The translations under genes and the position numbers were made by a program. The notes under the pieces were generated by a model. The model was not told where the DNA came from and ran no database searches. It worked only from the letters and a program-made list of their open reading frames with translations. Positions 28,528-46,102 of a DNA stretch of 64,000 nt are shown one piece after another. Each line of letters opens with the position of its first letter. Position 1 is the stretch's first letter. This stretch comes from a virus: positions 9,795 to 73,794 of the IMG/VR virus record IMGVR_UViG_3300046096_000285; one strand, given 5' to 3'.

Positions 28528-28653
28528 CTAGTAGCTCAGCTCCTTCCCAACTTCCAACGAAGCCTGGGACCTGAATGCTGAATTTAGTCCCGTATTCATT
28601 TTTTCAATACACGTATTCATTTTTTCACAAGAGCAAAACACCCGCTGCGTGAT

Positions 28654-28682
28654 TTGACTCGCCGAACCTTTTCTGCTAAGTT
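28654..28682 (+). promoter_or_regulatory. Sigma70-type promoter of first cassette (representative of ~20)
   Basis: TTGACT-17-TAAGTT; equivalent TTGnnn-16/18-TAnnnT follows nearly every 13-mer. Confidence 0.8.
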
Positions 28683-28709
28683 TGACCTAAGCAATGAAAG
28701 GACGGAAAA

Positions 28710-29240
28710 ATGCACGTTGCGCACATACTGCTTGTTCAAGCAGACTCAGCAGAGGACGCCTTTGAGAGGGTCGAAAGCGAACTATCACCAACTGACTATG
28801 GAGTTCGACCAGAGTGGTCAGACTGGCACAATGCCAACAACTCAGCAGAGATGAACTTTGCTGGTCGTTGGACTGGTTCATTCTTCAAGAGCGATAAAGA
28901 GGACGAGCCAAACCCAAACCACCTTTGCTACGCAGATGACAAGGCGCTCGCAGAAAGTGTTATCTCTGACCAGTTAGCCATGCGTGACGCGGAGATTGCC
29001 AACATTAGAAAGAACATGGTTTCAGACCTTTCTACTGTCACAATCAACCACTACGCAGAAAAGTGGAACATGGATTACTGGTATACCCAGAAGTTCCTCA
29101 AGTTGGCAGATAACGAGTGGACTCCAGACTCATACATTTATGACCTAGAAACCAGCACAGCGTCACTTCACTGGTTCATGGAGCGTGTCATGCTCGTGCC
29201 AAAGAAGCAGTTTCTGGTTCCTGTGGACTTCCATTATTAG
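28710..29240 (+). CDS. Hypothetical phage protein
   Basis: GRWTG and LVPVDFHY motifs; AAGGACGG RBS. Confidence 0.7.
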   Translation: MHVAHILLVQADSAEDAFERVESELSPTDYGVRPEWSDWHNANNSAEMNFAGRWTGSFFKSDKEDEPNPNHLCYADDKALAESVISDQLAMRDAEIANIRKNMVSDLSTVTINHYAEKWNMDYWYTQKFLKLADNEWTPDSYIYDLETSTASLHWFMERVMLVPKKQFLVPVDFHY

Positions 29241-29269
29241 AAGTGGAGAAGTGGTGATACACTTTTCTT

Positions 29270-29725
29270 ATGAAATCAATAGACAGATTTACAACTAAAT
29301 ACAAAATCAATCTAGAAACAGGCTGCTGGGACTGGATAGCAGGGACATCGGCTGGGTATGGAGCGTTCGCGTACGAGCGCGGCAAAAAAGCCCATAGATT
29401 CTCGTACGAATACCACAACAACACCATTCTCGGCGAACTGACTATCGACCACTTATGTAGGAATACACTGTGCGTAAATCCAGAACACTTAGAGGCAGTA
29501 CCTAAGGGGGAGAACTCTAGGCGCAGAAATCTCAACCACACCTATAAGAAAAAAGAAGTCTGTAAGAATGGACACTTCATAGGAAAAAATGAATACGTCA
29601 GACCAGATGGCTACTCTGAGTGCCTACTATGTAGGAGTGATAGAGGTAAGGCTTATAGGGAGAAGCATGGAGACGAGCATAGAGCCAAACTTCGTAAGTA
29701 TTACCACGACAAAAAAAATAAATAA
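29270..29725 (+). CDS. HNH endonuclease
   Basis: GCWDW, AHRFSY, DHLCRNTLCVNPEHLEAV..EN, CKNGH. Confidence 0.92.
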   Translation: MKSIDRFTTKYKINLETGCWDWIAGTSAGYGAFAYERGKKAHRFSYEYHNNTILGELTIDHLCRNTLCVNPEHLEAVPKGENSRRRNLNHTYKKKEVCKNGHFIGKNEYVRPDGYSECLLCRSDRGKAYREKHGDEHRAKLRKYYHDKKNK

Positions 29726-29814
29726 AAAACTTTCAAAATAGACTTGACACTTCGAACGAATGGTGTAAAGTTATCAGTAGGTGGAAATCACCACCCAAAA
29801 AGTAAGGACGGAAA

Positions 29815-30285
29815 ATGACAACAATCGTTGAGCCAGTAGTCGAGACAGGTAAGCCAGCAATCGCTGGTGTTGGTATCTATCTCGAACTCGTGCCAAAGGG
29901 CGACAACCCACACAACAAGACCACCCAGATTTTGTTTACCCCACAAGGTATGACAGAAAAGGGTCAGCCAGTAGGACTCGCCATGATTTCTCGTGAGGTC
30001 TCAACTTGGTCGCCACGCAAGCAATGGAGGCACAACTTCTCTCGCTTGACAGCAGAGCAAGAAGCACTCGCACCAGCAGACCAAGCACTCGCACTAATCG
30101 CTCGTTTCGAGACTTCTCTCAAGCGTGAGATTTACTATGGCTACGAACTACGCAACAAGCCAATCGTTTTCGAAGTTACCAACCTAGACCTCGCCGAGGT
30201 TCTGGACTGGAAAGCACCTGCTTCGGCACTACGCCGAATCCAAAAGGCACGAGTATCTCTCGGCTTTCCAGAGAAGTTAGTTTAG
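29815..30285 (+). CDS. Hypothetical protein
   Basis: TTGACA-17-TAAAGT promoter at 29744; GGACGG RBS. Confidence 0.65.
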   Translation: MTTIVEPVVETGKPAIAGVGIYLELVPKGDNPHNKTTQILFTPQGMTEKGQPVGLAMISREVSTWSPRKQWRHNFSRLTAEQEALAPADQALALIARFETSLKREIYYGYELRNKPIVFEVTNLDLAEVLDWKAPASALRRIQKARVSLGFPEKLV

Positions 30286-30308
30286 TCAAGGAATAGGACG
30301 GAAAAATC

Positions 30309-31349
30309 ATGACTACAACCACAGCAACCCCAGCACCAGCAACACGCTCAATGGACACCATTGAGGTAGACGAACTGTTCGCCAATCTGACAGGTATGCT
30401 TTTCAGCGTGGCTGTTCAGGACAAGGACGCAAGTCTCAAGTCTCCAAATCTCGACTCCCTAATGCCACCTGCCGCTCGTGCTAATCTTAGAGCAAAGGCT
30501 GGCACAGGACAGGTAAAGGTAGCGAAGAAGTCAATGGTCAATGTTGAAGCACTAGAGGGTGTCGAGAAGTATCCTCGCCCAAATGGTCAGGATTACTACG
30601 CTCGCCCTTGGGGTGAACACACAGACATCGAGGTTCTCCGCAAGGCTCGAACTGCTGACCAGTTTGTTCTCCTCTATGGTGCGCCCGGAACTGGTAAGAC
30701 TGCCGCTGTTGAAGCAGCGTTCCCAGACGAACTTTACACAGTCTTGGGTTCAGGCGACACCGAAGTTTCTGACCTCGTTGGAGGGTATGTTCAGACTCCA
30801 AGTGGCGGCTTCGAGTGGGTGGACGGTTCTCTCGTTCGCGCCGCCGAAGAGGGTAAGGTTCTTCTCATTGACGAGATTGGTCTCATTGACCCAAAGGTCT
30901 TGTCAATCGTTTATGGTCTCATGGACGGACGCAGGGAATACACCGTCACAGCGAACCCAGAGCGCGGAACTGTCAAGGCGAAAGAGGGCTTCTATGTAAT
31001 CGCCGCGACTAACCCAAATGCCCCAGGAGTTCGCCTATCAGAGGCGTTGCTATCTCGCTTCTCACTCCAAGTTGAAATGACAACTGACTGGGGTCTTGCC
31101 AAGAAGTTGGGCGTTCCAGTAATCGCTGTAACTGCCGCGCAGAACCTTGCGAAGAAGCAGAGCAATGGAGAAGTTTCTTGGTCTCCACAAATGCGTGAGT
31201 TGCTCAACTTCAAGACAGTCTCGACCTTGTTTGGTTCGAAGTTCGCTGTCGAGAACCTCGCAGGTTCAGCACCAGAACTTGACCGTTCTGTTGTGGTAGA
31301 TGTTCTGACCCGAGTGTTCGGCGAAGAAGTCAAGCCAGCCAAGATTTAG
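30309..31349 (+). CDS. MoxR/CbbQ/NorQ-type AAA+ ATPase
   Basis: GAPGTGKT, LLIDEI, IAATNP, LSEALLSRF. Confidence 0.92.
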   Translation: MTTTTATPAPATRSMDTIEVDELFANLTGMLFSVAVQDKDASLKSPNLDSLMPPAARANLRAKAGTGQVKVAKKSMVNVEALEGVEKYPRPNGQDYYARPWGEHTDIEVLRKARTADQFVLLYGAPGTGKTAAVEAAFPDELYTVLGSGDTEVSDLVGGYVQTPSGGFEWVDGSLVRAAEEGKVLLIDEIGLIDPKVLSIVYGLMDGRREYTVTANPERGTVKAKEGFYVIAATNPNAPGVRLSEALLSRFSLQVEMTTDWGLAKKLGVPVIAVTAAQNLAKKQSNGEVSWSPQMRELLNFKTVSTLFGSKFAVENLAGSAPELDRSVVVDVLTRVFGEEVKPAKI

Positions 31350-31470
31350 CAACACCGTCCGTTGCTAATCGGGGAGTGTCAAAAAAGTTTTCGAATGGAC
31401 TTGACACTCCCCACCCACTTATGCTACTTTGTTGGTAGGACGAAACACCAACACGAATAAAGGACGAAAC

Positions 31471-33243
31471 ATGGCACACTTATCTAGACTCTCAACTCGC
31501 ACGAGTTCAACTCCTGTCGAGTGGCTCAAGACCTGTTCACACATTGGCGAAGTTGCTAATGCTTGGGCTGGTCGTGGAGACCTTGCTGTCTACGCTGGCG
31601 AGGACGCTGGCATGGGCGAGGCACTTGCTTGCTTCATTATCGAGACAGCAGAAATCGAAATCAACCTACCAAAGGCTTTTGGCAAGGCGACCACTCCAGA
31701 AATGGTTGGCGACCTACGCTTGCGCGAAGTTCAGTATGACTGGGCAGAGCCAGTTGGCGTTATCTATCACGAGGCACTTCACGCTCGTTACACCACTTGG
31801 AACATGGAGGCACTCAAGGAGAGTCCAAAGGTCGAGATTGACGCTTTCATGTTGCTAGAGGAGTCACGCATTGAAGCACGAGGCGCACGACTAATCCCAA
31901 GTAACAAGTTGTTCTTGCGCTCGTCTGCCCTTGGTCTCTCGATTGGTGACATGGCAGAGGCTGTCAAGGACATGAGCGAGGTCTGGGCGACTGCCAACCT
32001 CGCAGGTCTGGCACTTGCTCGTGTAGACGCTGGCGTTCTCGAAGCGAGTGATGTCACGATTATCGAGGGCAAGGTTCTCGAGATTCTGGGCGAGGACTTG
32101 CTTGGCAAGTTGCGTTCAGTCTGGGTTCGCTTTCAGGCACTAGAGACTTCACAAATGGAACAGGGCAAGGCACTCGCTCAAGAGTGGGTCGAGTTGCTAC
32201 GCGAGGCAGACCCAGAGGGCGAACCTCAAGAGGGTGGCGCAGGTGGCGCAATGTCACAGGCACTCCAAGACTTGATTGACGCGCTTGGCGAGGCTGCTGG
32301 CGATACTGCTGTTCAGGTCTCGATTGACATGGGCGACCAGCAGGATTCAGAGGAACGCAAGGCAGAGGCAGAGGAACGCGCCAAGGAAAGCAAGCGACAG
32401 AACGACAACAAGCAGGAGTCGCGCGAAGTGTTCACTCGCTCGAATGGCTCGACTGGTTCTGGGTCAGATTCACGACTCCAAGAACAGCGCAACCCAACTG
32501 GACACGAACGCGCCGCCGCTGTTCAGATTGCCAAGATGTTGGAAAAGGCAAAGTATCGTGAACGCTCGCTCACCGAAATCAAGAGCCACGCGCCACAGGG
32601 TCGCCTCAAGGCTCGCGTTGCTATTCAGAACGCCGCCGCGAAGTCGCGTGGAGTTCGTGAGACACAGCCAGCGTGGGTCGCCAAGAAGCGCAAGCACACA
32701 GACGACCCGAACCTAAGCATTGGTGTCATGGTGGACATTAGCGGCTCAATGAGTTCGGCAATGGAGGCAATGGCAACTACGGCGTGGGTCATGGGAGAAG
32801 CAGGTCGCCGCGTTCAAGCCAAGACCGCAATGGTCTACTTCGGCTCGGGAGTGTTCTCGACTCTCAAGGTCGGTCAGAAGTTGGACAAGGTTTCGGTCTA
32901 CTCCGCGCCAGACGGAACGGAGAAGTTTGACAAGGCGTTCAAGGCACTAGACGGCGAGTTGAACCTGACCTACGGCGAGGGTGTTCGTATGTTGGTCGTT
33001 GTATCAGACGGACAGTTCACCAGCGTAGAAATGGAAAAGGCTCAAGCCGCGGCTCGCCTTTGTGACCGCAACGGAGTCGCGCTTCTTTGGATTACGCCAG
33101 AGGCTTGCTGGAGTGGCAAGGGTCAAGCCTTGCTCAACGGCACGAGCGGCGTGGTTCTGGACAAGATGAAAACAGACGAGATTGCGCTCGCTATCGGTAA
33201 AGCCGCCGCCGAAGCACTCGGTAAGGTGGGTTCAAAGTTCTAG
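31471..33243 (+). CDS. VWA-domain partner protein with N-terminal HEXXH
   Basis: YHEALH...LEESRIE; MIDAS DISGS, VVSDG. Confidence 0.88.
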   Translation: MAHLSRLSTRTSSTPVEWLKTCSHIGEVANAWAGRGDLAVYAGEDAGMGEALACFIIETAEIEINLPKAFGKATTPEMVGDLRLREVQYDWAEPVGVIYHEALHARYTTWNMEALKESPKVEIDAFMLLEESRIEARGARLIPSNKLFLRSSALGLSIGDMAEAVKDMSEVWATANLAGLALARVDAGVLEASDVTIIEGKVLEILGEDLLGKLRSVWVRFQALETSQMEQGKALAQEWVELLREADPEGEPQEGGAGGAMSQALQDLIDALGEAAGDTAVQVSIDMGDQQDSEERKAEAEERAKESKRQNDNKQESREVFTRSNGSTGSGSDSRLQEQRNPTGHERAAAVQIAKMLEKAKYRERSLTEIKSHAPQGRLKARVAIQNAAAKSRGVRETQPAWVAKKRKHTDDPNLSIGVMVDISGSMSSAMEAMATTAWVMGEAGRRVQAKTAMVYFGSGVFSTLKVGQKLDKVSVYSAPDGTEKFDKAFKALDGELNLTYGEGVRMLVVVSDGQFTSVEMEKAQAAARLCDRNGVALLWITPEACWSGKGQALLNGTSGVVLDKMKTDEIALAIGKAAAEALGKVGSKF

Positions 33244-33476
33244 GATTCCACTAGCGCAACGGTAGGCTTTCGGGTTCGTTCATGCCCGCCTCCTTTCCCT
33301 ATCGGCTACTGGATAGAGACCCTCGACAGATTCGTCCCTGTCGGGGGTTTCGCACTTTCGGCGAGCGCAGGTCGTATTCATTTTTTCATTCTGTCTTTCG
33401 ACTTCTGACGAAAGATGTTTGACACTCGTTTGAAGTATGCTAAGTTTGAACTATTCCTAGAAAGGGGAAAACAGAA

Positions 33477-34403
33477 ATGCCAAATCACGTTTGGAACAGC
33501 ATTGGGGTTTCAGGGGCTATCGCTGACATTGAAGCGTTCGTTGCTAAGGCTGGCAAGCCACACATTACAGAGTTCAAGGGCAAGCGTTATCAGGACGAAA
33601 CTGGCGCTTGGAAGTATGACCCAGAGATTATTGACACCCACGAGGACACAGACCCATTCTCATTCTGGAACTTCATAAAGCCAGACGACGAGATTCTTCC
33701 TGTCTACTTTGGACACGAGAAGTCAGAGAAGCCAGAGGGCTACGAGGGCTGGGACTTCGCGGAGAAGATGGCGCACGACCTCAAGTTCACAGGCAACAAC
33801 GCATACGACTGGAACGTTCGCAACTGGGGAACCAAGTGGGACGCATACGACCAGACCTTCGACGGCGTGACAACTGACGAAGCGATTGGAAAGGCGAGTG
33901 CGACTTACAGTTTCAATACGGCGTGGAGTATCCCAGTTCCAGTATTTGAAGCACTCTGCGAACAGCACCCAGAGTTGAGTTTCTCGTTTGAGTCGGAGGA
34001 GGAACAGGGCTGGGGCGCGACTTACGAGTCAAGCGCGGTAGACGACCCAGAGGACGGCGAGCCTACATCCGCACTACTTCTCATCAGCGAGTGGGACATC
34101 CCTGAGAGCCACGCAGAGTTGGTAGCCCGAGGGCGAGAATGCCACTGCGAGTATGACGACGACGAGGACTCGTGGTATGACGACTGCCCTCGTGAAGAAC
34201 GAGTGTTCACCGTTGTCGTTGAGCAGACTTTCGTGGTCAAGGCGACGGACGCAGAGAAGGCTTGGGAACTTGCCGAGGAACACCTCAACAAGCCGATTGA
34301 GAACTTGCCAGAGGGAGTCGAGCAGTCGGATGAGTATTCGCTGTTCGTCAAGAACCCAGAGACTGGCGAGCGTTTGTATCCGACACTCGGAGGGGGTGAG
34401 TAG
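33477..34403 (+). CDS. DUF1281/YubB-like ferredoxin-fold protein
   Basis: MPNHVWN, YDWNVRNWGTKWD, FNTAWS.P. Confidence 0.8.
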   Translation: MPNHVWNSIGVSGAIADIEAFVAKAGKPHITEFKGKRYQDETGAWKYDPEIIDTHEDTDPFSFWNFIKPDDEILPVYFGHEKSEKPEGYEGWDFAEKMAHDLKFTGNNAYDWNVRNWGTKWDAYDQTFDGVTTDEAIGKASATYSFNTAWSIPVPVFEALCEQHPELSFSFESEEEQGWGATYESSAVDDPEDGEPTSALLLISEWDIPESHAELVARGRECHCEYDDDEDSWYDDCPREERVFTVVVEQTFVVKATDAEKAWELAEEHLNKPIENLPEGVEQSDEYSLFVKNPETGERLYPTLGGGE

Positions 34404-34649
34404 CGTGGCAACACCAAAGACACCGAAGCCGAAGATGGGCAACGGCGCAACGACTCGTCTGACAGACGGACGACGCAAGTAGCAGAGGGAGAGGGCGAAA
34501 GCCCTCTCTTTTCTTTTGCCCCTCGTATTCATTTTTTCGTCATTGCCACGCCGATACACGCCGCGATTTGACACGAGTTTGGAATAGGGTATAGACTACG
34601 AGAGTAGTCAACGAGGAAATGCCTCGACTACACAAAGGAGGGGATTGAA

Positions 34650-35042
34650 ATGGCAACTGCCGAACTTCAATCAGCACAGGTTGCTAAGGCGACCACCAGC
34701 ATTACCAGCACCACAGAGGACAACCTAGTTGTTCTAACCCCTGCGATTCAGAAGCAGGTCAAGGCACTACGCGAGGCTCGCAATGTAGCGAAGCAGGCAA
34801 AGGCTCTAGGGGATACAGCACGAGACGTTATCTTGGAGTTCGTGGGGGAGACCACCACCAACCTCGTGGGCGTGGACGCAAAGGGCAAGCGTTTGATTAG
34901 CCTCAAGTTGATTCCAAGTTCAGAGAGTTTCGACTGGGCACGACTTCAACTTCAGCAGCCTGAGTTGTTCGAGATGCTCAAAAAGGAATACACCATTCCT
35001 CGTGGGGCAGGCGCACCAACTCCACGAGTGGACACGATTTAG
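34650..35042 (+). CDS. Hypothetical protein (similar to 38657..38983)
   Basis: Cassette gene; helix then FD...L....PELF. Confidence 0.6.
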   Translation: MATAELQSAQVAKATTSITSTTEDNLVVLTPAIQKQVKALREARNVAKQAKALGDTARDVILEFVGETTTNLVGVDAKGKRLISLKLIPSSESFDWARLQLQQPELFEMLKKEYTIPRGAGAPTPRVDTI

Positions 35043-35205
35043 TCCACTCACGAAAGTCGCTGGCGAGAGTTCCCCTCTCTCGCTGGCGATTTTTTGTATG
35101 GAGGCTGTATTCATTTTTTCATTAGATCCATAACTTCCAACGAATGGTTTGACTTGGAGATAACAAACTGGTAAAGTGGAAGTAACTCAACCAAAGGGGA
35201 TTCAA

Positions 35206-35658
35206 ATGAGAACCAGAGAATACGACCTCAACGTTTACGTCACAGATGGCGTGGCACGTTTGTCAGCATACGAATACACATATAGCGACAGCGACGACCC
35301 TCAGCCAAATGGCACAGAGATGAGCAAGTTCGTCACGTTGGAAGTTCCAATGGACAAAGCACACCACGACGAAGTGGCGTTTCTACTGAGCGACGAGGAC
35401 TGGCAAGACTCACCAGTGGCAGACTGGCAGGACTACGACAGCCCATGGGAAAACTTGGCGTGGCTAGAGACAGCACCGGCAAGCATAAGAGCGTGGGGAG
35501 ACGCGCTCGCGGAATACGAGCCGACCACTCAACACGAGTGGGAACTCTACACAATGGACTTGAAATACGGCGAACGGCGAGACGTGAAGTGCCTCAACTG
35601 CGACGCGACATACCCTATCTACCGTTTGACATGGGAACAGATGACGGCTAAGGTGTAG
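35206..35658 (+). CDS. Hypothetical protein
   Basis: AAGGGG RBS after cassette promoter. Confidence 0.6.
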   Translation: MRTREYDLNVYVTDGVARLSAYEYTYSDSDDPQPNGTEMSKFVTLEVPMDKAHHDEVAFLLSDEDWQDSPVADWQDYDSPWENLAWLETAPASIRAWGDALAEYEPTTQHEWELYTMDLKYGERRDVKCLNCDATYPIYRLTWEQMTAKV

Positions 35659-35660
35659 GT

Positions 35661-35885
35661 ATGAGAAAAGACATCAAGCAACTACGGATACTCGCAGAGC
35701 AACAAGGCTGGAGAGTAGAGCGCACTAACGGCGACCACTTACGGTGGCTCGCGCCAGAGGGTGGCATGGCTATCTACTCGGCAAGCACACCGTCTAATGC
35801 TCGCGGAATACTCAACCTCAGAGCGCAACTGCGTAAAGCGGGTCTACATTTAGAGAAGCACGGCAAGCAAAAGGTGAACGCATGA
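35661..35885 (+). CDS. HicA-like protein
   Basis: L..QGWRVERT.GDH.RW..P...STPS....N....L...G. Confidence 0.65.
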   Translation: MRKDIKQLRILAEQQGWRVERTNGDHLRWLAPEGGMAIYSASTPSNARGILNLRAQLRKAGLHLEKHGKQKVNA

Positions 35886-36178
35886 AACTGTATCGGCAAG
35901 CACTAGGCGAGGTTCTGCGCGAAGCAAGAACGGTGAGGGGTCAGACCCTGCGACAAGTCTCAACGGCTGCCTCGTGCGCCCTCGGATACCTGTCGGAGTT
36001 GGAGAACGGACACAAGGAAGCGTCCTCGGAGATTTTGGAGGGGCTTGCCCGTGCGCTCAAGGTGACGGTGAGTGAACTCGCTATCCGTGCTGGCTTGCGT
36101 ATAGCGGAGGAGAGTATCCCTGATACCCCTGCCGAACTCTACGAGGAAGCACCGGCCCTCATTCCTCACCGAGGATAG
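35882..36178 (+). CDS. XRE HTH regulator, ClgR-like
   Basis: LGEVLR..R...G.TLR.VS..A...LGYLSELE.G.KEASSE.L. Confidence 0.82.
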   Translation: MKLYRQALGEVLREARTVRGQTLRQVSTAASCALGYLSELENGHKEASSEILEGLARALKVTVSELAIRAGLRIAEESIPDTPAELYEEAPALIPHRG

Positions 36179-36292
36179 CCTCGGGTGGTAACCCCGTATT
36201 CATTTTTTCAACAACCGACACGGCGAGCGCAATACTTGCTTGACGGCTTGCCGTAGGGTATAGTTGGACTATCCAATGAAAGGGGTTGCCAA

Positions 36293-36688
36293 ATGGCAGA
36301 GAACATCACAACGGCGGGGCTAGTAGCCACCACACCAAGATACCTAGTCACGGCAGACGGCTTGCCGATTACTTCATTCCGGCTTGCCACAACTTCAAGA
36401 AAGTTTGACGCGCGAACTGGCGAGTGGGTTGACGGCGAGGCTAACTGGTATACCGTTACCGCCTTCCACGACTTGGCTATCAATGCGGCAAGCAGTATCG
36501 AGAAGGGTCACCGTATTGTCGTTCAAGGCGCGGTTAGAGTGCGCGACTGGGATAACGGCGAGCGAAGCGGAACATCCGTAGAGATTGAAGCCGAGGTCAT
36601 AGGTCACGACTTGAGTTGGGGAACCGCTGTGTTCACCCGAACCGTCTTGACTCGTAGGGTAGAGAAGCCAGAGACCGTGGGGGTATAG
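36293..36688 (+). CDS. ssb: Single-stranded DNA-binding protein (no acidic tail)
   Basis: FRLA...R......EW.DG..NWY.V..F..LA.N...S..KG.R..V.G, IGHDL.WG. Confidence 0.9.
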   Translation: MAENITTAGLVATTPRYLVTADGLPITSFRLATTSRKFDARTGEWVDGEANWYTVTAFHDLAINAASSIEKGHRIVVQGAVRVRDWDNGERSGTSVEIEAEVIGHDLSWGTAVFTRTVLTRRVEKPETVGV

Positions 36689-36864
36689 AGACCTTACCGA
36701 ACAGATAGAGAAAACGCGGGAACTTGCTATCCCGCGTTTTTTCATAGTCGGGGTCGTATTCATTTTTTCAACCGGCACGACACTTCACACTAAGATTTGG
36801 AAGTTGGCACGGAAAGTGGTAAGGTTGAACTATCACCGAAGACAAGGGTGAGAAAAGGGAAGAG

Positions 36865-37038
36865 ATGAACGAGATAAAGATTTGCCCAAAGTGTCAGGGC
36901 TACATCCCAAACAACAAGACACCGGGGGCATACTCAGGCGCGATTTCACGCCGAGACAACAAGACAGAGATTTGTTCGGCTTGCGGAACTCATGAAGCGT
37001 TCGAGGACCTTTTCGCGAAAGAGCGAGTCAATGGCTAA
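36865..37038 (+). CDS. Small zinc-finger protein
   Basis: CPKC...AISRRDNKTEICSAC. Confidence 0.65.
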   Translation: MNEIKICPKCQGYIPNNKTPGAYSGAISRRDNKTEICSACGTHEAFEDLFAKERVNG

Positions 37039-37165
37039 GGCAGAGTGTTACGACTGTGACGCGGAAATTGAAGTCGAAGACTCAACCTATGTCCACCCCT
37101 TGTGCGCTGAGTGTCAGAACGAAGCAGACGACTGGCTACAAACACAGATGTTGCTAATGAACTAA
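37031..37165 (+). CDS. Small zinc-finger protein
   Basis: CYDC...CAEC. Confidence 0.55.
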   Translation: MAKAECYDCDAEIEVEDSTYVHPLCAECQNEADDWLQTQMLLMN

Positions 37166-37339
37166 AAGTCACGCTCACCGAAAGGTGGGCGTTTCTTTTA
37201 CGCCGCATCGCGTATTCATTTTTTCACCAACACAGTGGCGATTACTCACAACAACTCACGAATGATTTGATTTTGTCCTAGCAGGGTGATAAGTTTGATT
37301 TGTTGCCGAAGTTCAGTAAGCAACGAAAGGGGCAACAAA

Positions 37340-37669
37340 ATGGGTAACAGGGCTTGGATTCAGATTTCAGCAGAGCAGTTTGAAACACCTATCAGCCTTT
37401 ATGGTCACTGGTCGGGCGAGGACAACCTCACCGCCGTAGTCAAGACCCTAGAGAGTTCAACACGCATTGGGGATGTGTCATACCTCACAGCACAGATTTT
37501 CTTCCACTTCACGCAACTAGGTGGCTACACAGGCGACACAGGGTTTGGCATTTCGACAGGCGAAGCCCCTAGCGTAGACGATGTGGACACCGTTTATGTG
37601 AACGCTGATAATGGTGAGTATACTTATCAGGGCGTAACTCACCACGAGTTTGCGCTAATGAAGGCTTGA
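37340..37669 (+). CDS. Hypothetical phage protein
   Basis: MGNRA, LY.HW.G, R.GD.SY motifs. Confidence 0.7.
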   Translation: MGNRAWIQISAEQFETPISLYGHWSGEDNLTAVVKTLESSTRIGDVSYLTAQIFFHFTQLGGYTGDTGFGISTGEAPSVDDVDTVYVNADNGEYTYQGVTHHEFALMKA

Positions 37670-37912
37670 GTCGAGGTCGAGTCCACCACTCCCTTGATTC
37701 ATTGGGTTAGGGTTAGCCCCCTTTCCCTAACCCCGAACGCCAGTAGATAATCCCCTTATCTACTGGCGTTCACCATTTCTCAGGGATACGAGGCGTATTC
37801 ATTTTTTCCTCGAGCTCAGACACGACGCAACAACTCACGAATGATTTGACTTGATACGAGTTATGTGTTACTTTTGTATTGCCTTTGAAAAGGCAGAAAG
37901 ATAAGGGGCAAC

Positions 37913-38320
37913 ATGGAAAAGGTATTAGAGATTCGCAAGTTTGAGATTAGCTCAGACTGTTCATGCGAGGTATACGACGAGGACACAGACACGTCTTCAC
38001 CAAGCGACGAGTGTTTCAACTGTTTCGCCGACGACAAGGATAATTTCAAATACGTGATTCTTCAGCCATGGCTTGAGGCTAATGGTTGGGATGAGGACAC
38101 AGTTGTTTATGTGTTCAGCGCGAACATGAACTGGAATCACGTCGCGGGATGGACAAACGTCTACGCGAGAGAGGCTATCGACTGCCTAACTTTGAATGGC
38201 GAGTTTACCCTTAGTTACAAGTTGGATGGCAAGAACTTGACTTGCGTTCGTTCAAGCCACGACGAACATGGCGCGTTGTTCACGTTCAGTGAGGCACAGA
38301 AGGATTATCGCGATGAGTAA
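37913..38320 (+). CDS. Hypothetical protein
   Basis: Cassette gene; SSHDE.G motif. Confidence 0.65.
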   Translation: MEKVLEIRKFEISSDCSCEVYDEDTDTSSPSDECFNCFADDKDNFKYVILQPWLEANGWDEDTVVYVFSANMNWNHVAGWTNVYAREAIDCLTLNGEFTLSYKLDGKNLTCVRSSHDEHGALFTFSEAQKDYRDE

Positions 38321-38477
38321 CCTAGTGTTCACCGGCCCTCGCGCCGTTCTCTCTCAGTTGTCTGCCGATTCGACAGTCATGTTCTCTCAGTTGATAGAGG
38401 ATGACGAGTTGGTCGCGATGGTGTTAGCCAAGAAGCCATACGACACGTTGCTTGAATACGTGAACGAAAACTACTGA
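38313..38477 (+). CDS. Small hypothetical protein
   Basis: Overlaps previous stop, ends before terminator. Confidence 0.55.
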   Translation: MSNLVFTGPRAVLSQLSADSTVMFSQLIEDDELVAMVLAKKPYDTLLEYVNENY

Positions 38478-38656
38478 GTCACGACAGGGAAGCCCCGCGG
38501 AAACGCGGGGTTTCTTTTTGCCCGCGGGAAGTCGCCGTATTCATTTTTTCAGCGAGCCTAGAGCCGACACGCTTAGGATTTGGTGTTTTTTGAAATAGGG
38601 GGTATCATTGACTTATGAAGTCAATAAGGCTTCACTAAATAGAAGGGGGTCGCCAA

Positions 38657-38983
38657 ATGGCTACCAAGATTCAGAAGGCAACCGCGGTTGTCACCGAGGC
38701 TCGCAAGGTCTCAAAGGTTGTTGTTGCTAACGCCGAGCGTCTAGCGTTCGTTCGTGCCGAGGTTATTCGTCTAGAGGCAGAAGCCAAGCTCTTGCGCGAT
38801 GGGCTTATCGCGGTTGCCGATGGCGCAACTACTCTTGTCCACAACAACATCGCCATCGTTGAGATTTCACCACGCTCAACCTCACGCGTAGACTCGAAGG
38901 CGTTGAAGGTTATGTTTCCTGAAGCATACGAGGCAACACTCAAAGTCACCGTATCACCTGTCGTGGATGTTCTGAAGCGATAA
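38657..38983 (+). CDS. Hypothetical protein
   Basis: Cassette gene; RVDSKALK..FPEAY. Confidence 0.65.
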   Translation: MATKIQKATAVVTEARKVSKVVVANAERLAFVRAEVIRLEAEAKLLRDGLIAVADGATTLVHNNIAIVEISPRSTSRVDSKALKVMFPEAYEATLKVTVSPVVDVLKR

Positions 38984-39207
38984 ACGCCACGAGGAAGCCC
39001 CCTAGGATTCTCTAGGGGGTTTTTCCTTACCCTAAACACGCCAAGCCCGCCACGAGGCACACAGCCCCGCCACGAGGGCGTATTCATTTTTTCGTCAAAA
39101 CACGCCAGCTGAGGATTTGATTTGACAAGTGTCCGGCTTATGGATAAGATTTAGTTATAACTAAATAGATGCACCACTCAATGCACCACCAACCTAAGGG
39201 GATTCAA

Positions 39208-39537
39208 ATGGCAACTATGGCACCTGCTACCAACACCACTACCAAGTTCGACCTAGGCGCGACTCTAGACGAGCCGACCACCGCATCAGTCGTCACCGAG
39301 GTCGAGAAGTTCGACAACACTATGGTCTATGCCAAGACTTCACTAGAGATGTTCGTTAGCGCGGATAACGTGGATGACACAGTCTACCTTGACCTTCGCC
39401 AACTCAACTTTGTACGACTGGGCCCAACCGACGAAGAACAGATGCACGTATTCACCACCTTGCTCAACCACCGCTTCACTCGCGAGCAGGCCGAGGCACT
39501 GGTCGCCACGTTCACTCACGAACTCGCGAAACTCTAG
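39208..39537 (+). CDS. Hypothetical protein
   Basis: AAGGGGATTCAAATG start. Confidence 0.6.
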   Translation: MATMAPATNTTTKFDLGATLDEPTTASVVTEVEKFDNTMVYAKTSLEMFVSADNVDDTVYLDLRQLNFVRLGPTDEEQMHVFTTLLNHRFTREQAEALVATFTHELAKL

Positions 39538-39690
39538 CGAGCGCGACAAGCCCCTGTCGAAAGGCAGGGGTTTTGTCATTCCCCGGCTGTATTCATTTTT
39601 TCACAAGAAGACACAGGAGTGGGCTGAGATACTATGTTTTGTCCGAGGGGTTTGATAAAATGGGAGTATCCAAATGAAAGGGGATAAAGA

Positions 39691-40047
39691 ATGACAAACT
39701 ACAGCGACGTGGAAGTTGCTCTTGAGAACGCTAAGGCGATTGCTTGGGACACCTGCCACAAGATTTACGTTCTAATGGATGACGAGCAAGTTGAGAAGAT
39801 GCGCGAGTACGAGTACGACCCTCTAATCACGAGCGACGAGATGGACCCTAGCGAAATGCTGTCCACGATTCAAACTTGGTATGAGGACTCTTGCGGATTG
39901 CGTTTCGTAGAAAGCGTCACCACAAATCACGAAGACCCTAACCTTGGGTTTGAAAGTCTGATTCCACAGGGCGCGGATGACGAAGATGACGACACCGACG
40001 AATCTGAAGACGACTACTTCGATGACGAGGATGACGAAGATGAGTAA
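39691..40047 (+). CDS. Acidic hypothetical protein
   Basis: IAWDTCHKIY...W..SC.LRF motif; D/E tail. Confidence 0.7.
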   Translation: MTNYSDVEVALENAKAIAWDTCHKIYVLMDDEQVEKMREYEYDPLITSDEMDPSEMLSTIQTWYEDSCGLRFVESVTTNHEDPNLGFESLIPQGADDEDDDTDESEDDYFDDEDDEDE

Positions 40048-40240
40048 GTTCGCGTTCAACCTAGTTCTCAAGACTGATTACATCGAAGCAGAGAACATCG
40101 AAGAAGCAGAGAAGTTGCTGAACAAGTACATCGATGGGCTGGCTATGGTTGGTGAGCCTGAGATTACTTGGGACGAAGTTGACTGGCAGACCTTTGAAGG
40201 CGACCTAGTAATCAAAGACTTTAGTTCGCCCCTCAACTGA
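40040..40240 (+). CDS. Small hypothetical protein
   Basis: Coupled; ends before terminator. Confidence 0.55.
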   Translation: MSKFAFNLVLKTDYIEAENIEEAEKLLNKYIDGLAMVGEPEITWDEVDWQTFEGDLVIKDFSSPLN

Positions 40241-40405
40241 GCACGAAGAAGAACGCTCTCGAAAGAGGGCGTTTTTTCTCAGGCCCGTTGTATTCATTTT
40301 TTCAACTGGCGACACGGGGGGTTGGTCGAAAGTTGCGAAGGTTTGTCGAAAGTAGTAAAGTAGTTCTGTTGGCAAAAGCCAGCGTAAAGGGATAAGGGGT
40401 TTGAA

Positions 40406-40630
40406 ATGAAGTTTGTAGTTCGTAGAGCAGTCATTGGAGTTCTAGCAGTTCCAGCAGTAGCCGGTGCGTATGTGTTTGGGTATCTAGGTCTGTTGCTTCT
40501 AGGCGCGGAGGGTGCGCTCAAGATTGAAGAAATCTGGAACAATGGAATGTTGATTGGTGGCGTGTGTGCCGTAATGCTCGTGTTCGCGCCACAGGTAAAC
40601 AAGTTCCTCGACAGGGTTACTGGAGAGTAA
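40406..40630 (+). CDS. Two-TM membrane protein
   Basis: Two hydrophobic helices; cassette gene. Confidence 0.65.
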   Translation: MKFVVRRAVIGVLAVPAVAGAYVFGYLGLLLLGAEGALKIEEIWNNGMLIGGVCAVMLVFAPQVNKFLDRVTGE

Positions 40631-40856
40631 AAGACTTGGCAGGGTTTATCCCCCTATCCCCTGCCCAAGAAAAGAGCGTGACCATTCCGCTCACGGCTAG
40701 GCACTTCCCCCAAGTGTCTAGCCTTTTTCTTTGCTCGGAAGTGTATTCATTTTTTCACCCTGCGACACGCGGATACAGATTGGATTTGCGCTCGCCGAGG
40801 ATTTCCTGTAATGTAGTTCTTGTAGCCAGCAAGGGGTTGGCAGACAAGGGGTTCAA

Positions 40857-41015
40857 ATGCTAAAGACTTCAACAGCCGAGTGCGTAGATTGCGCGGTTGC
40901 TATCACCAGCGACAACACGCAAGACGAGGGTGGAAAGTTTGCTTCACCACAGGGGGAATACGCTATCTGCGACAACTGCGCCAATGCTCGCATTGACGCT
41001 TACCTAGAGAACTAA
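40857..41015 (+). CDS. Small zinc-finger protein
   Basis: CVDC...CDNC; AAGGGG RBS. Confidence 0.6.
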   Translation: MLKTSTAECVDCAVAITSDNTQDEGGKFASPQGEYAICDNCANARIDAYLEN

Positions 41016-41027
41016 GGGGCAGGGAAA

Positions 41028-41252
41028 ATGGCCGACTCAATGAAAGGTTCTGGGATTGACTCCGAGGACTACACCGCTTGGTTCTTTTGCTCACATTGTG
41101 ACGAGGAACTGGAACTTGATGGAAAGTCAGACGACTATGGGATTATTGCGACAGCCGAGTGTCCTAAGTGCCGTTCAACCCTAGAGGTTGAAATGCCTAG
41201 CAAGGAACAGTTGCGCGAGGACTACCTAGCCGACTACGACCCAAACAACTAA
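41028..41252 (+). CDS. Small zinc-ribbon protein
   Basis: CSHC...CPKC. Confidence 0.65.
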   Translation: MADSMKGSGIDSEDYTAWFFCSHCDEELELDGKSDDYGIIATAECPKCRSTLEVEMPSKEQLREDYLADYDPNN

Positions 41253-41497
41253 ATAGACTTACCTAGCGCGGGCAACTTCGCTAGGTGGGAGAGAACCGAG
41301 TAACCCCCTTGCTCGTGCGACTCCGAAAGAGCCAGACACTAATCCCCTTGTGTCTGGTTCTTTTGTTTCTACGGTGCTATTCATTTTTTCAGCAAGACTC
41401 CCCCGGGCGTGTCGATTTGCGCCACCCTGGTTGGGGTGCTACAGTTGATACTGTAGTCAGGAAGCAGATAGCGGAGGGCTACACGCAAGGGGAAGAA

Positions 41498-41833
41498 ATG
41501 TCTTCAATCATTACTGTTCCAGTTCAGTTCCAGGCCGAGGACTTCTGGAGTGAAATCATGGGTTCAGCCTGGGAGACCTGGGACTGGTGGGTGACCCTGG
41601 ACTACAGCCAGGGCGCGTCCTGGGACAAGGTTGGCGAAATCACCGTTACATCCTGGGACGGCGAGACCGAGGGCGAGACCCTAGTCACCAAGACCCTCAC
41701 CATCCAGGACCTGGCTGAGTCTTACGGCAAGTGCCTGGCCGAAGGGTTCCGAATCAACATCCACGACCTGGACGCCGGCCAGGGCGACGTCATCCTTCAG
41801 ATGGCAATGTTCGGAGAAGTCGTCTACGGATAG
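41498..41833 (+). CDS. Hypothetical phage protein
   Basis: DLDA..GD.ILQ.A.FGEVVYG C-terminus; AAGGGG RBS. Confidence 0.7.
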   Translation: MSSIITVPVQFQAEDFWSEIMGSAWETWDWWVTLDYSQGASWDKVGEITVTSWDGETEGETLVTKTLTIQDLAESYGKCLAEGFRINIHDLDAGQGDVILQMAMFGEVVYG

Positions 41834-41870
41834 TTTCACCAGGACGCCCCTCGGCAGAAATGCCGGGGGG

Positions 41871-41921
41871 TTTTCCACAGCCTGTGGAAAGTTATCCACA
41901 GACTTATCCACATGTGGATAA
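41871..41921. promoter_or_regulatory. Cluster of five DnaA boxes
   Basis: TTTTCCACA 41871, TGTGGAAAG 41883, TTATCCACA 41892, TTATCCACA 41904, TGTGGATAA 41913. Confidence 0.85.
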
Positions 41922-42066
41922 CTTTTTTTGGAGAGGTCTATTCATTTTTTCGTCAAACGACACGCACTTACGGAGACGATTTGACAGCTGCCAAAAACCC
42001 GAGTAGGCTTACTAATGTAATCAGGAAGCCAAGGGGGCGGAGGGTTACTGAAGGGGTGGGGTTCCA

Positions 42067-42405
42067 ATGGGACTTCTTATCAGCGTGTATCGGTCGGACT
42101 ACGACAGCAAGGCAAATGTTTTCCACGGAAAGCGTCAGCTAGTTCTCGTGAATGTCGAAGGGCCATTCCAGCCATCAGACAACGCACCAGCTGCCAAGTT
42201 GGTTCAGGGTCACGGTAAGACCGCAATCATCGTGCCAGCGGACGAAGGCTTTGACGGCGTTCAGATGAACGGCGGAACTTACGGCTCAACCAGCGACAGT
42301 CGCTTTCAGCGAGCCGTAGAGGGACTAGTCGGAGTCTCACACTTTGCGGTGGCAATCCACGACCGTCGTGAGTCGTGGGCGGAATACGAGCAGTTCAGCC
42401 AGTAG
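42067..42405 (+). CDS. Hypothetical phage protein
   Basis: M.GG.Y..TSDSRF...IHDR.E motif. Confidence 0.7.
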   Translation: MGLLISVYRSDYDSKANVFHGKRQLVLVNVEGPFQPSDNAPAAKLVQGHGKTAIIVPADEGFDGVQMNGGTYGSTSDSRFQRAVEGLVGVSHFAVAIHDRRESWAEYEQFSQ

Positions 42406-42560
42406 GCAACCAAGCGAAAGGCTCACCCGAAGGGGTGGGCTTTTTTCTTGCTCGTTAGTCTATTCATTTTTTCATCCGGATGCGGGGAAGCTTGCGCGGT
42501 TCGTTGGAAGTTGGTAAAGTTGGAGTATCAACCAGATTGGTTGAAGATAAGGGGCTTCAA

Positions 42561-42908
42561 ATGGAAAAGATTGGTTTGGTAGTGGACTCGGAGTTCACCG
42601 CGTCTGTGACCAGGTTGTCACTCAAGGAACTACAAGCTGCGGTCGATGGTCTGATTCAGCCGATTGACATTCGCGAGGGCTTGACTATGTGGGTAAACGA
42701 GGAGTTCTTGTTTCGCTCAGAACCAGACGCAAACGTTTTGGCTAGTGCGTTCTTCGCTGAGGCTGGTGGAAAGTATGACATCCACGGAACTGTCGTCTTC
42801 ACTGGTGGCACGGATGAGGATGGCAACACTCTCGGGCTGTCAGACGAGCACCGCGAGTTAGTGGAGTCGCTCTGTAAGTTCGGGATTGGCGTTCGCGAAA
42901 TGGCTTAG
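42561..42908 (+). CDS. DUF3846-like protein
   Basis: L.ELQ.AV.G.I....MWVNEE......N..A.....I.G.VVF.G. Confidence 0.75.
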   Translation: MEKIGLVVDSEFTASVTRLSLKELQAAVDGLIQPIDIREGLTMWVNEEFLFRSEPDANVLASAFFAEAGGKYDIHGTVVFTGGTDEDGNTLGLSDEHRELVESLCKFGIGVREMA

Positions 42909-43080
42909 ATTTCAAAAAAGGAAAGTCCGGCTTCGGTCGGGCTTTTTCTTTTTCTCGGGGCTATTCATTTTTTCCTTCAGCTCGCAGACAACACACGGAA
43001 GTTCGTGGGAAGTTGCGTAGGCAGGGCGTTTCGATTAGGCTTAGGTCATAAGCCAAATGGTTTGGCGAAAGGGGATTCAA

Positions 43081-43314
43081 ATGGCAACCAAGAACGCGAA
43101 CGCAGATTTCGTTTTCGAACTCGTTATGAAGATGGCGGGCGGGGCGGACAAGTATTCAATCCACACTCAGGGCGCAATCTGGGCTGAGTGTCAGCGCAAC
43201 TCATCACTACAAACGCTAGCGGGAATGTATCTCGTTGGTTCATCAGCACGCGCAGAGAACAACCTAAAGAAGTTGCGCTCTGCCGTTTACTCAACATTCC
43301 TAGAGAGGAACTAA
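43081..43314 (+). CDS. Hypothetical protein
   Basis: AAGGGGATTCAAATG start. Confidence 0.6.
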   Translation: MATKNANADFVFELVMKMAGGADKYSIHTQGAIWAECQRNSSLQTLAGMYLVGSSARAENNLKKLRSAVYSTFLERN

Positions 43315-43316
43315 TA

Positions 43317-43544
43317 ATGGCAATGTCATACGGAGAGCGTAAAGCGCAAGCAATCGCTAGGCGTAATGCGGAACTACTCACGCGAGATTCTATGTTGGAG
43401 ATTCGCAGTATTCTAAGTCCAATGCCCTACGCGCCTAAGTCGGTGCTAGAGGGCGTGCCGTTCGTAATAGAGAACTTGACCCCAATGGAATTAGATGTGG
43501 AGTTCGTGGGCGACACAATCACAATCAAAGAAGCGGTGCGCTAA
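43317..43544 (+). CDS. Hypothetical protein
   Basis: GAGG RBS, coupled. Confidence 0.55.
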   Translation: MAMSYGERKAQAIARRNAELLTRDSMLEIRSILSPMPYAPKSVLEGVPFVIENLTPMELDVEFVGDTITIKEAVR

Positions 43545-44325
43545 TGCGGGCGTGGCACTTGCTCAAGTATCGAACTTGGCGCGTGGTCGGTTCGCTGGCG
43601 TTCGGTCTGTATCACCGCTCTGCTCAATGGTCTCACGAAGCGTTCGTGCGGGCTGGCAAGTCTGGTGCGGACAATGACTAGGGGCGAGAGTCTGGCTGTT
43701 CTTTTACGCTCGGTGGCTGGCGGTCTGGGATTTGTCTGGCTGTTTGGTTTTGCCGTTGGCTGGCAAGACCCTGTATCGCCGTTCGTTGTTTCCACACTTG
43801 CCGTTGGATTCTTGTGGGGTGCGTGGCGCGTGGGTCGTTAGTGACCCCGCGTTCGCGCTTGCGTGCGGACTATTCATTTTTTCCCTAATCCCCCTGCGGG
43901 CACACGGATGATTTGACTTTCATTTGCGGAGTAGGGTAGGCTAGTCGTAGACCAGCCAAGGGGGCTGGGGAGAGGGGCATCATGATTCACATCTTCTGTG
44001 CGGACTGCGACGGCTGGGACTCGTTCCCATCTGGCGGGTCACACAACTGCGAGACCGTCGAGTTCGTTACCAACCCATCCGCTGGGTTCATCGGTGGCGA
44101 CTGCTGGTTCGGGGACGACTCGGACTACTAGGCGAAAGCCTAGCCAACCCCTCACCTTCGGGTGGGGGGTTTCTTTCTGTTCGTGAGAAGTTGTCTGTGC
44201 GGGAGTGCTATTCATTTTTTCCCTAGGCGACACGCTTGCGGGGGGTATGATTTGACTTTGCCGGAGGATGTGTTAGGCTAGTCCTAGGACAAGCCAAAGG
44301 GGCTTGCCAGAAAAGGGGATTCAAA

Positions 44326-44496
44326 ATGTTCGGTCAGACTTTCTCAGGAATCGAAATCACTGTTCGCGAAGCAAACGGCTCAATCGTATGTGCGCCAACC
44401 TACGAAGCACACACCACGGCGAAGCAGTTGGAACTTATCAACGCAACCAAAGCAATGCTTACCGCTGGTCGCTCAATCACTTGGCGTTTGTTCTAA
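44326..44496 (+). CDS. Small hypothetical protein (56 aa)
   Basis: AAGGGGATTCAAAATG start; fills cassette. Confidence 0.6.
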   Translation: MFGQTFSGIEITVREANGSIVCAPTYEAHTTAKQLELINATKAMLTAGRSITWRLF

Positions 44497-44802
44497 GCCA
44501 ACTTCCAACGAAGCCCGTCACCTCGGTGGCGGGTTTTGTTTTGCCCTGTGGGTCTATTCATTTTTTCGTCAAGTCGGGCATGCGGGTGACACGATTTGAT
44601 TCGCGCACCGTAAAGTGCTAAGCTCATGGGTAGAGCTTCAAAGGGGGGCTCAATAGTTCAAAGGGGTATTTATGTTTGGGTTCAACGAGTGCGCACACTC
44701 TGAGTCGGAATCGTATGGCACTAGCCAGATTCATTGGGATGACCGCTCTGCGGGTATCGGCTGGGTTCAAGCTCCGTGCGCTGAGTGCGGGGAATCGCTA
44801 AC

Positions 44803-45564
44803 ATGGGTTATCAACGCATGAGCGCCCTGCTAGCAACCCGCGAGACTACTGCGGGCATTATCGCGGGGATGCTTACCGAAAACACTGGTCGGAGCTTCCT
44901 AGACTCTGGGGGTGAATCGGGACGTGCGTGGCAGAGAAACGCGGGCATGACCGTGGCAGACTTTGAAGCCCGCCCTGCGGGTACCTATGACGCTGAGTAT
45001 GAGACGCTTACGGTAGACACATTCCATTACTTGAATGAGCTACTAACCTTTGACGCTGAGCGCACTGCGGAATGGGTGACCTTTGACGCTGAGCGGTCGC
45101 ACCTATCGTGGGGCGAAACTTTGGATGAATGGCTTGACACTCTAGGCGTCCCTGCCGAAGGGGGTGGGGATTTTTACTCTAACGCGCGATGGGGATTCAA
45201 CAGCTACAACTTTGATGGGTGTTTGCTGAGCTCCACGATTCAGGGCGTCAAGTTTGTCTCTGCGGGCACTGAGTACCTAGCCCTTCAGATTCATGGCGGG
45301 GCTGACGTGCGGGGCGGTTACACGGCATTCAAGATTTTCACTGGAGACATTGAATCAGTGATTCTCGGGACTACTCGCGCAACCCTGCGATGCCCTGAGT
45401 GCGACTTTTATGCGGGCTACTCCGATGGCATGTTGGAAGATTACTACCTAGGTGACGCGCTAGCTGACCCGAACATGTTGATTGAGATGGATGTGCCTAC
45501 GGAGCTCCCTGCGGGATGGGCAATCTCTGACGGTTGCCCTTTGCATAAGGTCGCTCTGGTTTAG
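44803..45564 (+). CDS. Hypothetical phage protein
   Basis: MLTENTG..FLDSGG..GR.WQRN, FNSYN, LQIHGGADVRGGYT. Confidence 0.75.
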   Translation: MGYQRMSALLATRETTAGIIAGMLTENTGRSFLDSGGESGRAWQRNAGMTVADFEARPAGTYDAEYETLTVDTFHYLNELLTFDAERTAEWVTFDAERSHLSWGETLDEWLDTLGVPAEGGGDFYSNARWGFNSYNFDGCLLSSTIQGVKFVSAGTEYLALQIHGGADVRGGYTAFKIFTGDIESVILGTTRATLRCPECDFYAGYSDGMLEDYYLGDALADPNMLIEMDVPTELPAGWAISDGCPLHKVALV

Positions 45565-45733
45565 CTCTACTCGGGAACCCCTGCTTCGGCGGGGGTTTTC
45601 GCATGTGCGGGGGAGCTATTCATTTTTTCCTGCTCTGCAACGAGTGCGGGCGTGATTTGACAAGTTTCGAATAGCTGATAGGATTTAGTCATAACTAAAT
45701 AGCTCCAATTAACCGACAACCAAAGGGGACAAC

Positions 45734-45976
45734 ATGTCAACAGCAACAACTACCGCTAGCTTCTTCGTGCTAGCCGTCTCAACCAAGGGTGAGCTGCGCT
45801 TCACCCGTGGCAACAGCTTCGTTACTCGCGGTGCTGCAACCTTCGAAGCTTCTCAGAGCAACAAGCTCACTGAGCACCTTCGTGCTCAGGGATGGGACAC
45901 TAGCTACAAAGTGTTCTCTGCCGATGAGCTCAACGCCCTGGGTGCGCTAGGTATTCGCATCGGTGAAGCCTACTAG
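45734..45976 (+). CDS. Hypothetical protein
   Basis: Last motif-bearing cassette. Confidence 0.6.
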   Translation: MSTATTTASFFVLAVSTKGELRFTRGNSFVTRGAATFEASQSNKLTEHLRAQGWDTSYKVFSADELNALGALGIRIGEAY

Positions 45977-46102
45977 GCACACGCTCAAAGATGACCCCGC
46001 CATCGTGCGGGGTTTTCTTTTTGCTCAGGGGTTGCATTTATCTTGCGGGGCATGTATGATTGACTTATCAAGTCAAGGTGACTTGGAGATAAGGGGTTCA
46101 AA

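Follow-up and report, generated by a model that had tools for sequence, protein, structure and literature searches.

The window analysed here is a 64-kb stretch (positions 9,795 to 73,794) of the 73.8-kb IMG/VR virus record IMGVR_UViG_3300046096_000285, which is estimated to be 44% complete. Between ~28.6 and 46.5 kb it carries a cassette array of small plus-strand open reading frames (ORFs), each with its own Shine-Dalgarno sequence AAGGGG; ahead of most of them lie a hairpin and T-run and, after these, TTGnnT and TAnnnT separated by 16-18 nt. Upstream of these promoters recurs a 13-nt word, TATTCATTTTTTC (hereafter the box), whose placement relative to the -35 element is the subject of this study. 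The portal protein of the window shares 71% identity with its counterpart in Actinomycetia phage DSL-LC01, which was assembled from a lake metagenome, and is 60-67% identical to the portals of large Microbacterium phages such as Pumpernickel, Cece, and A3Wally, with Arthrobacter phage portals also close. The window and DSL-LC01 also agree in the order of the genes that surround an AAA ATPase and a 604-amino-acid protein. Given these portal identities and the matching gene order, the source is a large uncultured freshwater actinophage; the record was found in 24 public runs, all of them metagenomes and nearly all from freshwater. Searches of the "phages" collection, in near or distant mode, returned no DNA match to the array.

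The exact box occurs 22 times on the plus strand (28593-45617) and once on the minus strand, and with up to two mismatches the window contains 25 matches, compared with 1.5 expected from shuffles. The sites lie in intergenic spaces, and 22 of the 23 exact copies are oriented with transcription. Promoters were called two ways, with a generic sigma-70 scorer and with a weight matrix trained on the clade, and both gave the same -35 and -10 calls; distances were measured from the start of the 13-mer to the start of the -35. The single inverted copy (29583-29595) lies inside an HNH endonuclease ORF (29270-29725) and is followed by no promoter of this class. About 0.002 such exact copies would be expected by chance, and relatives carry one to three inverted copies each, some in conserved contexts without promoters.

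Along the plus strand the series begins with an extra copy at 28593-28605, which stands 21 bp (two turns) before the next box and 61 bp from the -35. The promoter that both copies precede spans 28614-28682, with -35 TTGACT at 28654, -10 TAAGTT at 28677 and a distance of 40 bp. It is followed, in the same notation, by promoters at 33375-33446 (TTGACA at 33419, TAAGTT, 44 bp), 34526-34597 (TTGACA at 34568, TAGACT, 42 bp), 35108-35177 (TTGACT at 35149, TAAAGT, 41 bp), 36197-36264 (TTGCTT at 36236, TATAGT, 39 bp), and 36757-36825 (TTGGAA at 36797, TAAGGT, 40 bp). The next two are one turn longer: 37213-37295 (TTGATT at 37267, TAAGTT, 54 bp) and 37796-37874 (TTGACT at 37846, TACTTT, 50 bp). Then come 38538-38608 (TTGGTG at 38580, TATCAT, 42 bp), 39081-39150 (TTGACA at 39122, TAAGAT, 41 bp), and 39590-39661, the least certain call (matrix score 8.8), with a weak -35 ATGTTT at 39634, -10 TAAAAT and a distance of 44 bp. 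The series continues with 40291-40361 (TTGCGA at 40333, TAAAGT, 42 bp), 40744-40814 (TTGCGC at 40786, TAATGT, 42 bp), 41378-41445 (TTGCGC at 41417, TACAGT, 39 bp), and 41939-42009 (TTGACA at 41981, TAGGCT, 42 bp). One promoter is a turn shorter (42461-42520; TTGCGC at 42492, TAAAGT, 31 bp) and its neighbour a turn longer (42962-43041; TTGCGT at 43013, TAGGCT, 51 bp). The last four lie at 43871-43942 (TTGACT at 43913, TAGGCT, 42 bp), 44209-44279 (TTGACT at 44252, TAGGCT, 43 bp), 44555-44624 (TTGATT at 44596, TAAGCT, 41 bp), and 45617-45684 (TTGACA at 45657, TAGGAT, 40 bp). These independent calls reproduced the distances listed in an earlier sequence-only reading of this DNA, as well as its extra first copy 21 bp further up; the sole difference is at 39590, with its weak -35 (44 bp here, ~43 bp there). 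Many core promoters combine TTGACT with a TGn extended -10 and TAnnnT, and others retain only the TTG of the -35. Promoters of the same class also exist without a box (at 46032, 48881, and, on the minus strand, 47237); the box is therefore the mark of a regulatory subclass.

The sequence-only reading had proposed that these distances cluster at three, four, and five helical turns. Within the window, 17 of the 21 distances fall at 39-44 bp, and periodicity is carried only by the values 31, 50, 51, and 54. The sites at 50 and 54 bp (37796 and 37213) are not independent, because their promoter-proximal spacer sequence is held in common (family D16). A V-test at 10.5 bp gave p ~0.025 for the window alone, which is suggestive and no more. 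We therefore turn to relatives for the wider distribution of distances. A pattern scan of IMG/VR recovered the exact TATTCATTTTTTC in at least seven other contigs, with 14-30 copies per contig and only ~70% nucleotide identity to the window over a few genes, and the SSB-like protein of the array (36293-36688), used as a query, brought up further relatives. Across 84 non-redundant same-box copies the commonest distances were 41 bp (34 copies), 42 bp (23), and 40 bp (9), and the extended consensus of the same-box relatives reads tGTATTCATTTTTTCACa.

Position-blind weight-matrix calls with a score of at least 13, after homologous sites had been collapsed, yielded a pooled set of 129 non-redundant promoters. 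Their distances form four classes, centred at 31.8 bp (n = 6), 41.5 bp (n = 102, standard deviation 1.2; the main class), 52.6 bp (n = 10), and 62.6 bp (n = 10), and are empty at 34-35, 37-38, 47-49, and 57-59 bp. The tandem first copy in the window, at 61 bp, belongs to the fourth class. The best period, obtained from the 27 values outside the main class, is 10.6 bp; the V statistic is 0.57 at a fixed 10.5 bp (p<5e-5), and p remains 2e-4 when any period of 5-20 bp is allowed. Four lineages each show more than one distance class; among the lineages with several classes, L117 uses mostly 53 and 63 bp, L108 uses 41-42, 51-52, and 60-63 bp, and L105 uses 32-33 and 42-44 bp. Because the pooled relatives show four quantised classes separated by gaps, the phasing is settled: the whole-turn periodicity is real, supported weakly by the window and strongly by the clade, and the three proposed clusters have become four modes. 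Duplication of a 10-11 bp unit was considered as an origin of the steps. Long spacers carry no excess identity at lags of 10-11 bp, so the steps represent selected lengths and not unit copies.

The distance from motif to -10 is slightly steadier than that from motif to -35, being 64.3, 64.5, and 64.9 bp when the spacer measures 16, 17, and 18; core promoter and start site therefore appear to be the reference for the register. If transcription starts 7 nt past the -10 (hexamer at -12 to -7), a convention that could move all absolute positions by a few bp, the main-class box would start at about -76.5 and span about -76 to -64. On the same assumption, and with the -35 hexamer starting at -35, box centres would lie at -60.8, -70.5, -81.6, and -91.6 for the four classes. 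CRP in Escherichia coli activates class I promoters from -61.5, -71.5, -82.5, and -92.5, with an effect that drops with distance (PMC4132738), and the inferred centres appear to agree closely with these positions, a match that depends on the start sites assumed. The earlier proposal that a bound factor or a bend must face RNA polymerase fits both the whole-turn coupling and these centres. Its class I part is matched by the positions; its UP-like part is not, as the box sits at about -76 to -64 and not at -60 to -40. The box does not form the A/T-rich block directly before the -35 (about -40 to -60) that defines UP-element placement, and the 18-50 bp spacers between box and -35 differ in sequence, with a mixed or GC-rich composition. 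The quantisation at 10.6 bp does fit a box on the polymerase face, as for an UP element.

A second element was noted in these spacers. About half of the main-class promoters have a (G)ACACG motif 18-21 bp upstream of the -35 (for example in spacers 40304-40332 and 40757-40785); in some, CGTG also stands 9-11 bp ahead of the -35, and the two form an ACACG-N6-CGTGT dyad. The promoter at 42461 lacks ACACG, and in the one at 42962 its place relative to the -35 is kept. As a second phased site CACG/ACACG was rejected, since it takes no regular position in the longer distance classes, and we treat it as a secondary feature.

Box sequence is uniform per genome and changes by lineage. L105 and L117 carry TATTTATTTTTTC (33 and 15 copies), and L108 carries TATTCGTTTTTTC (23 plus-strand copies). 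Letters 5-6 are CA, TA, or CG depending on lineage, always a pyrimidine-purine step, and the T6 tract next to this step is unchanged in all versions. The 22 window copies and the 84 same-box copies agree at all 13 letters, C5 and C13 included, and the -35, -10, and spacers vary freely. In the more distant L111/L112 (10500-20200), 16 cassettes are headed by a 45-bp, almost invariant A-rich block, AAAAAATTAATAAAAACAAAATAAAACAACAAGAAGATTACC, followed by ~10 variable nt and then TTGACT, at a fixed distance to the -35; its reverse complement contains TATTAATTTTTT, a one-letter variant of the box. L106, L107, and L109 are without such a box, but CGCGCTCGCGG repeats are present. DSL-LC01 has no box copy even with two mismatches, and its syntenic array (L103, 22600-43300) contains at least 33 copies of an invariant promoter word of extended -10 type, AGATTCTAAAGATGTTATAAT, without an upstream box. 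No comparable invariant box was found in Microbacterium phage Pumpernickel, and the 13-mer string was absent from the searched literature apart from unrelated eukaryotic matches.

These versions bear on an explanation that dispenses with a dedicated protein, in which the T6 tract and the flexible step next to it bend the DNA to the polymerase, or the host alpha subunit's C-terminal domain (alpha-CTD) makes a far-upstream, UP-like contact, leaving the promoters strong at once on infection. Helical phasing would be equally expected from a bend or from an alpha-CTD contact, and UP elements must also sit on the polymerase face (PMC4132738). All box versions have only the T6 tract and the pyrimidine-purine step in common, L111/L112 use a 45-bp A-tract-rich block at a fixed distance to the -35, and immediate-early promoters cannot await a phage-made factor. 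Yet the box lies outside the UP region, from which a GC-containing spacer separates it; a bend alone would leave the non-T letters unfixed, whereas all 13 are kept; and a neutral position would vary inside a genome instead of switching by lineage. We regard this protein-independent architecture as unlikely. The T-tract bend of the sequence-only reading thus fares unevenly: the phasing fits it, but the lineage switch at letters 5-6 is predicted neither by a plain bend nor by a host alpha-CTD contact. A co-evolving cognate reader, by comparison, predicts a box that is uniform within a genome and differs by one letter between lineages. The 13 fixed letters, the non-UP position, and the lineage-switching letters 5-6 together argue for such a sequence-specific reader over a plain T-tract.

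We examined the upstream side of the box with base-frequency profiles, which were used in place of a perfect-stem terminator finder because the distances from the latter were noisily distributed. In the profiles the T-run of the terminator reaches its maximum 15-21 bp upstream of where the box starts, and there T occurs in 53-77% of copies, although this spacing is only a mode that covers about half of the copies. With a separate T-run ~18 bp upstream, the box does not fit the role of a mere terminator tail, in line with the sequence-only reading, which had also disfavoured that role. A hairpin-loop role for the 13-mer, in RNA or single-stranded DNA, was rejected: its flanks had looked complementary by eye (TG...CA), and in no lineage did they pair in excess of shuffled partner flanks (p=0.16-0.61). 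A terminator-like palindrome immediately upstream of the 41939 box holds a cluster resembling DnaA boxes (41871-41921), with TTATCCACA at 41892 and 41904, its complement at 41913, and two near-boxes.

A polymerase stalled against a protein bound at the box would have its active site at about the position of the terminator T-run. The box could accordingly be read as a stoperator-like roadblock, at which a repressor bound to an asymmetric site halts read-through from the upstream terminator and insulates the cassettes. L5-type stoperators are defined by just what the box shows, namely an asymmetric 13-bp site, more than 20 copies, an orientation along transcription, and a place in short intergenic spaces, and in cluster A phages such sites are bound by a monomeric repressor and come in versions that track the repressors (PMC9283540). 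A roadblock, however, could work without helical register to the promoter that follows; the whole-turn register links the box with the promoter instead of with elongation, and the terminator-to-box spacing is a mode that holds in only about half of the copies. Unlike cluster A operator sites, no box overlaps a -35, and none is placed over an early promoter, all sites lying 31-61 bp upstream of the -35. No gp71-like or immunity repressor was found among the 30 array proteins scanned in this ~44% complete record. We judge a roadblock role very unlikely.

The array also bears marks of exchange at the box. In five same-box relative pairs with usable ends, 35-50% of homology ends in the arrays fall 7-14 bp from the box centre, that is, at the box edges, compared with 6% expected, and none of 2000 random trials reached the observed fraction. 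Whole cassettes have been transposed with their junctions at boxes; for example, G001 11458-11928 corresponds to c1404 7357-7827, out of order with its neighbours, which map to 9097-9746 and 9682-11641. The cassette gene order of the window is permuted in L105. Here the sequence-only reading, which had favoured a transcriptional role over a recombination site, does not hold: as rearrangement junctions lie at the box edges and whole cassettes have moved between boxes, the choice between transcription and recombination is a false one, and the box has both roles. A stronger form of the argument would make the box primarily a recombination signal, through microhomology or as the target of a phage recombinase, with shuffling like that of PeSL (promoter-early stem-loop) cassettes and with its uniformity produced by recombination. 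The enrichment of homology ends, the junctions of the transposed cassettes, and the permuted order in L105 are all what it would lead one to expect. Recombination alone is nevertheless insufficient, because it leaves the whole-turn promoter spacing and the one-way orientation unexplained. Crossovers within a 13-mer reshuffle its neighbours and do not carry a new letter to all copies, and a recombination role may be a by-product of any repeated word. We think it quite unlikely that recombination is the primary function.

The interpretation we favour, with confidence about evenly balanced, is that the 13-mer is the site of a lineage-private, probably phage-encoded, sequence-specific factor acting from class I positions. 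This factor would be made early or delivered with the DNA, and would bind the box and touch RNA polymerase. In phage phi29, the regulator p4 sits ~70-80 bp upstream of sigma-A promoters, contacts the polymerase, and either activates or holds the promoter. The effect here could be activation or recruitment, or a p4-like hold that shuts promoters off; because the promoters look strong, shut-off is as plausible as activation. Since one word heads every cassette, the shared box also serves as the place where crossovers add, remove, and reorder cassettes among related phages. We further put forward, tentatively and at somewhat less than even confidence, a broader proposal: each lineage of lake actinophages would have a private box-reader pair, in which a phage-made or virion-delivered protein reads the 13-mer at class I positions and switches the whole early array on or off, the pair co-evolving by single letters, with the array maintained as a recombination-ready accessory library.

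Several observations weigh against a dedicated factor, beginning with the search for it. No binding protein for the box was identified in the array and record searched. The XRE-type helix-turn-helix (HTH_31) protein at 35882-36178 was not supported as the reader: every relative carries it, whichever box version it has and even where the box is missing, and its recognition helix is identical across lineages with different boxes or none. Among the array genes, only ORF 38657-38983 tracks the box, occurring in every box-bearing lineage and at none of the box-less loci; it matches no Pfam family, its Atlas neighbours are unnamed, and no PDB match was obtained at E<=0.001 (AlphaFold model, mean predicted local distance difference test (pLDDT) 76). 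No Lsr2 domain was found in the record (~44% complete). The core promoters look strong alone from their sequence, and the need for an activator is not obvious. A pyrimidine-purine step beside an unchanged T6 would also suit a structural kink-plus-bend element. Two sites depart from the register, one at 36 bp, half a turn out of phase and conserved in three relatives, and another, conserved and low-scoring, at 65 bp; the absolute positions, moreover, could shift by a few bp with the assumed start sites.

If a sequence-specific factor does read the box, these phages would hold an undiscovered regulator with lineage-private specificity. Phasing is normally demonstrated with spacing mutants; here more than 100 natural promoters take that role, and only whole-turn spacings survive among them. 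The phasing strongly predicts that the contact made with actinobacterial RNA polymerase is face-specific; activation from upstream has received little study in these bacteria. As an exchange junction, the box links gene regulation to the trade of accessory genes among large phages. The box, its spacer rule, promoter, and terminator could also become compact expression modules for actinobacteria.

Two further features of the window were recorded. GATC occurs once in the cassette array (28593-46548, ~18 kb), compared with ~58 copies expected if it were as dense there as elsewhere in the window (151 in total). The large terminase ORF (49722-52163) has Hom_end and LAGLIDADG matches at residues 274-346, between the terminase domains, which suggests that it contains an intein.

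Among known systems, CRP class I promoters offer the closest parallel to the spacing, as there too an upstream site is tolerated only at whole-turn steps. Use of the positions drops with distance in both, the three longer classes here holding 102, 10, and 10 promoters. The CRP site is a 22-bp dyad, and the box is an asymmetric, T-rich 13-mer on a phage in an actinobacterial setting, in front of core promoters that already look strong. The p4 sites of phi29, whose centres are near -82 (late promoter A3) and near -71 (early promoter A2c), occupy similar ground. They are inverted repeats and few in number, whereas a single asymmetric word heads ~21 promoters here. In their organization the cassettes resemble the PeSL cassettes of T4-type phages, in which small genes of unassigned function also lie between a terminator stem-loop and an early-type promoter (PMC2839356, PMC4122927). 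The composite layout is present, in that most boxes have a hairpin and T-run on their upstream side and are followed by a promoter and Shine-Dalgarno sequence, and exchange junctions fall in the motif in same-box relatives, as in PeSL arrays, where a conserved intergenic motif is the exchange site of cassettes between relatives (PMC4122927). The phage itself does not group with T4-type myoviruses, whose hyperplastic regions house the PeSL cassettes, its portal being nearest those of DSL-LC01 and of Microbacterium and Arthrobacter phages (60-71%). In PeSL arrays the conserved word is the promoter, whereas here a separate box stands 30-63 bp upstream of the -35, phased and in lineage-private versions. 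Stoperators, such as the sites of L5 gp71, share with the box their copy number, asymmetry, orientation, intergenic place, and between-phage versions (PMC9283540, PMC6550527); they have no fixed promoter register and act on elongation in a temperate phage, whereas the box keeps a quantised register upstream of promoters. Three ideas that were already known, those of class I phasing, of PeSL cassettes, and of stoperator-like private words, thus come together in the logic of box, phasing, and cassette.

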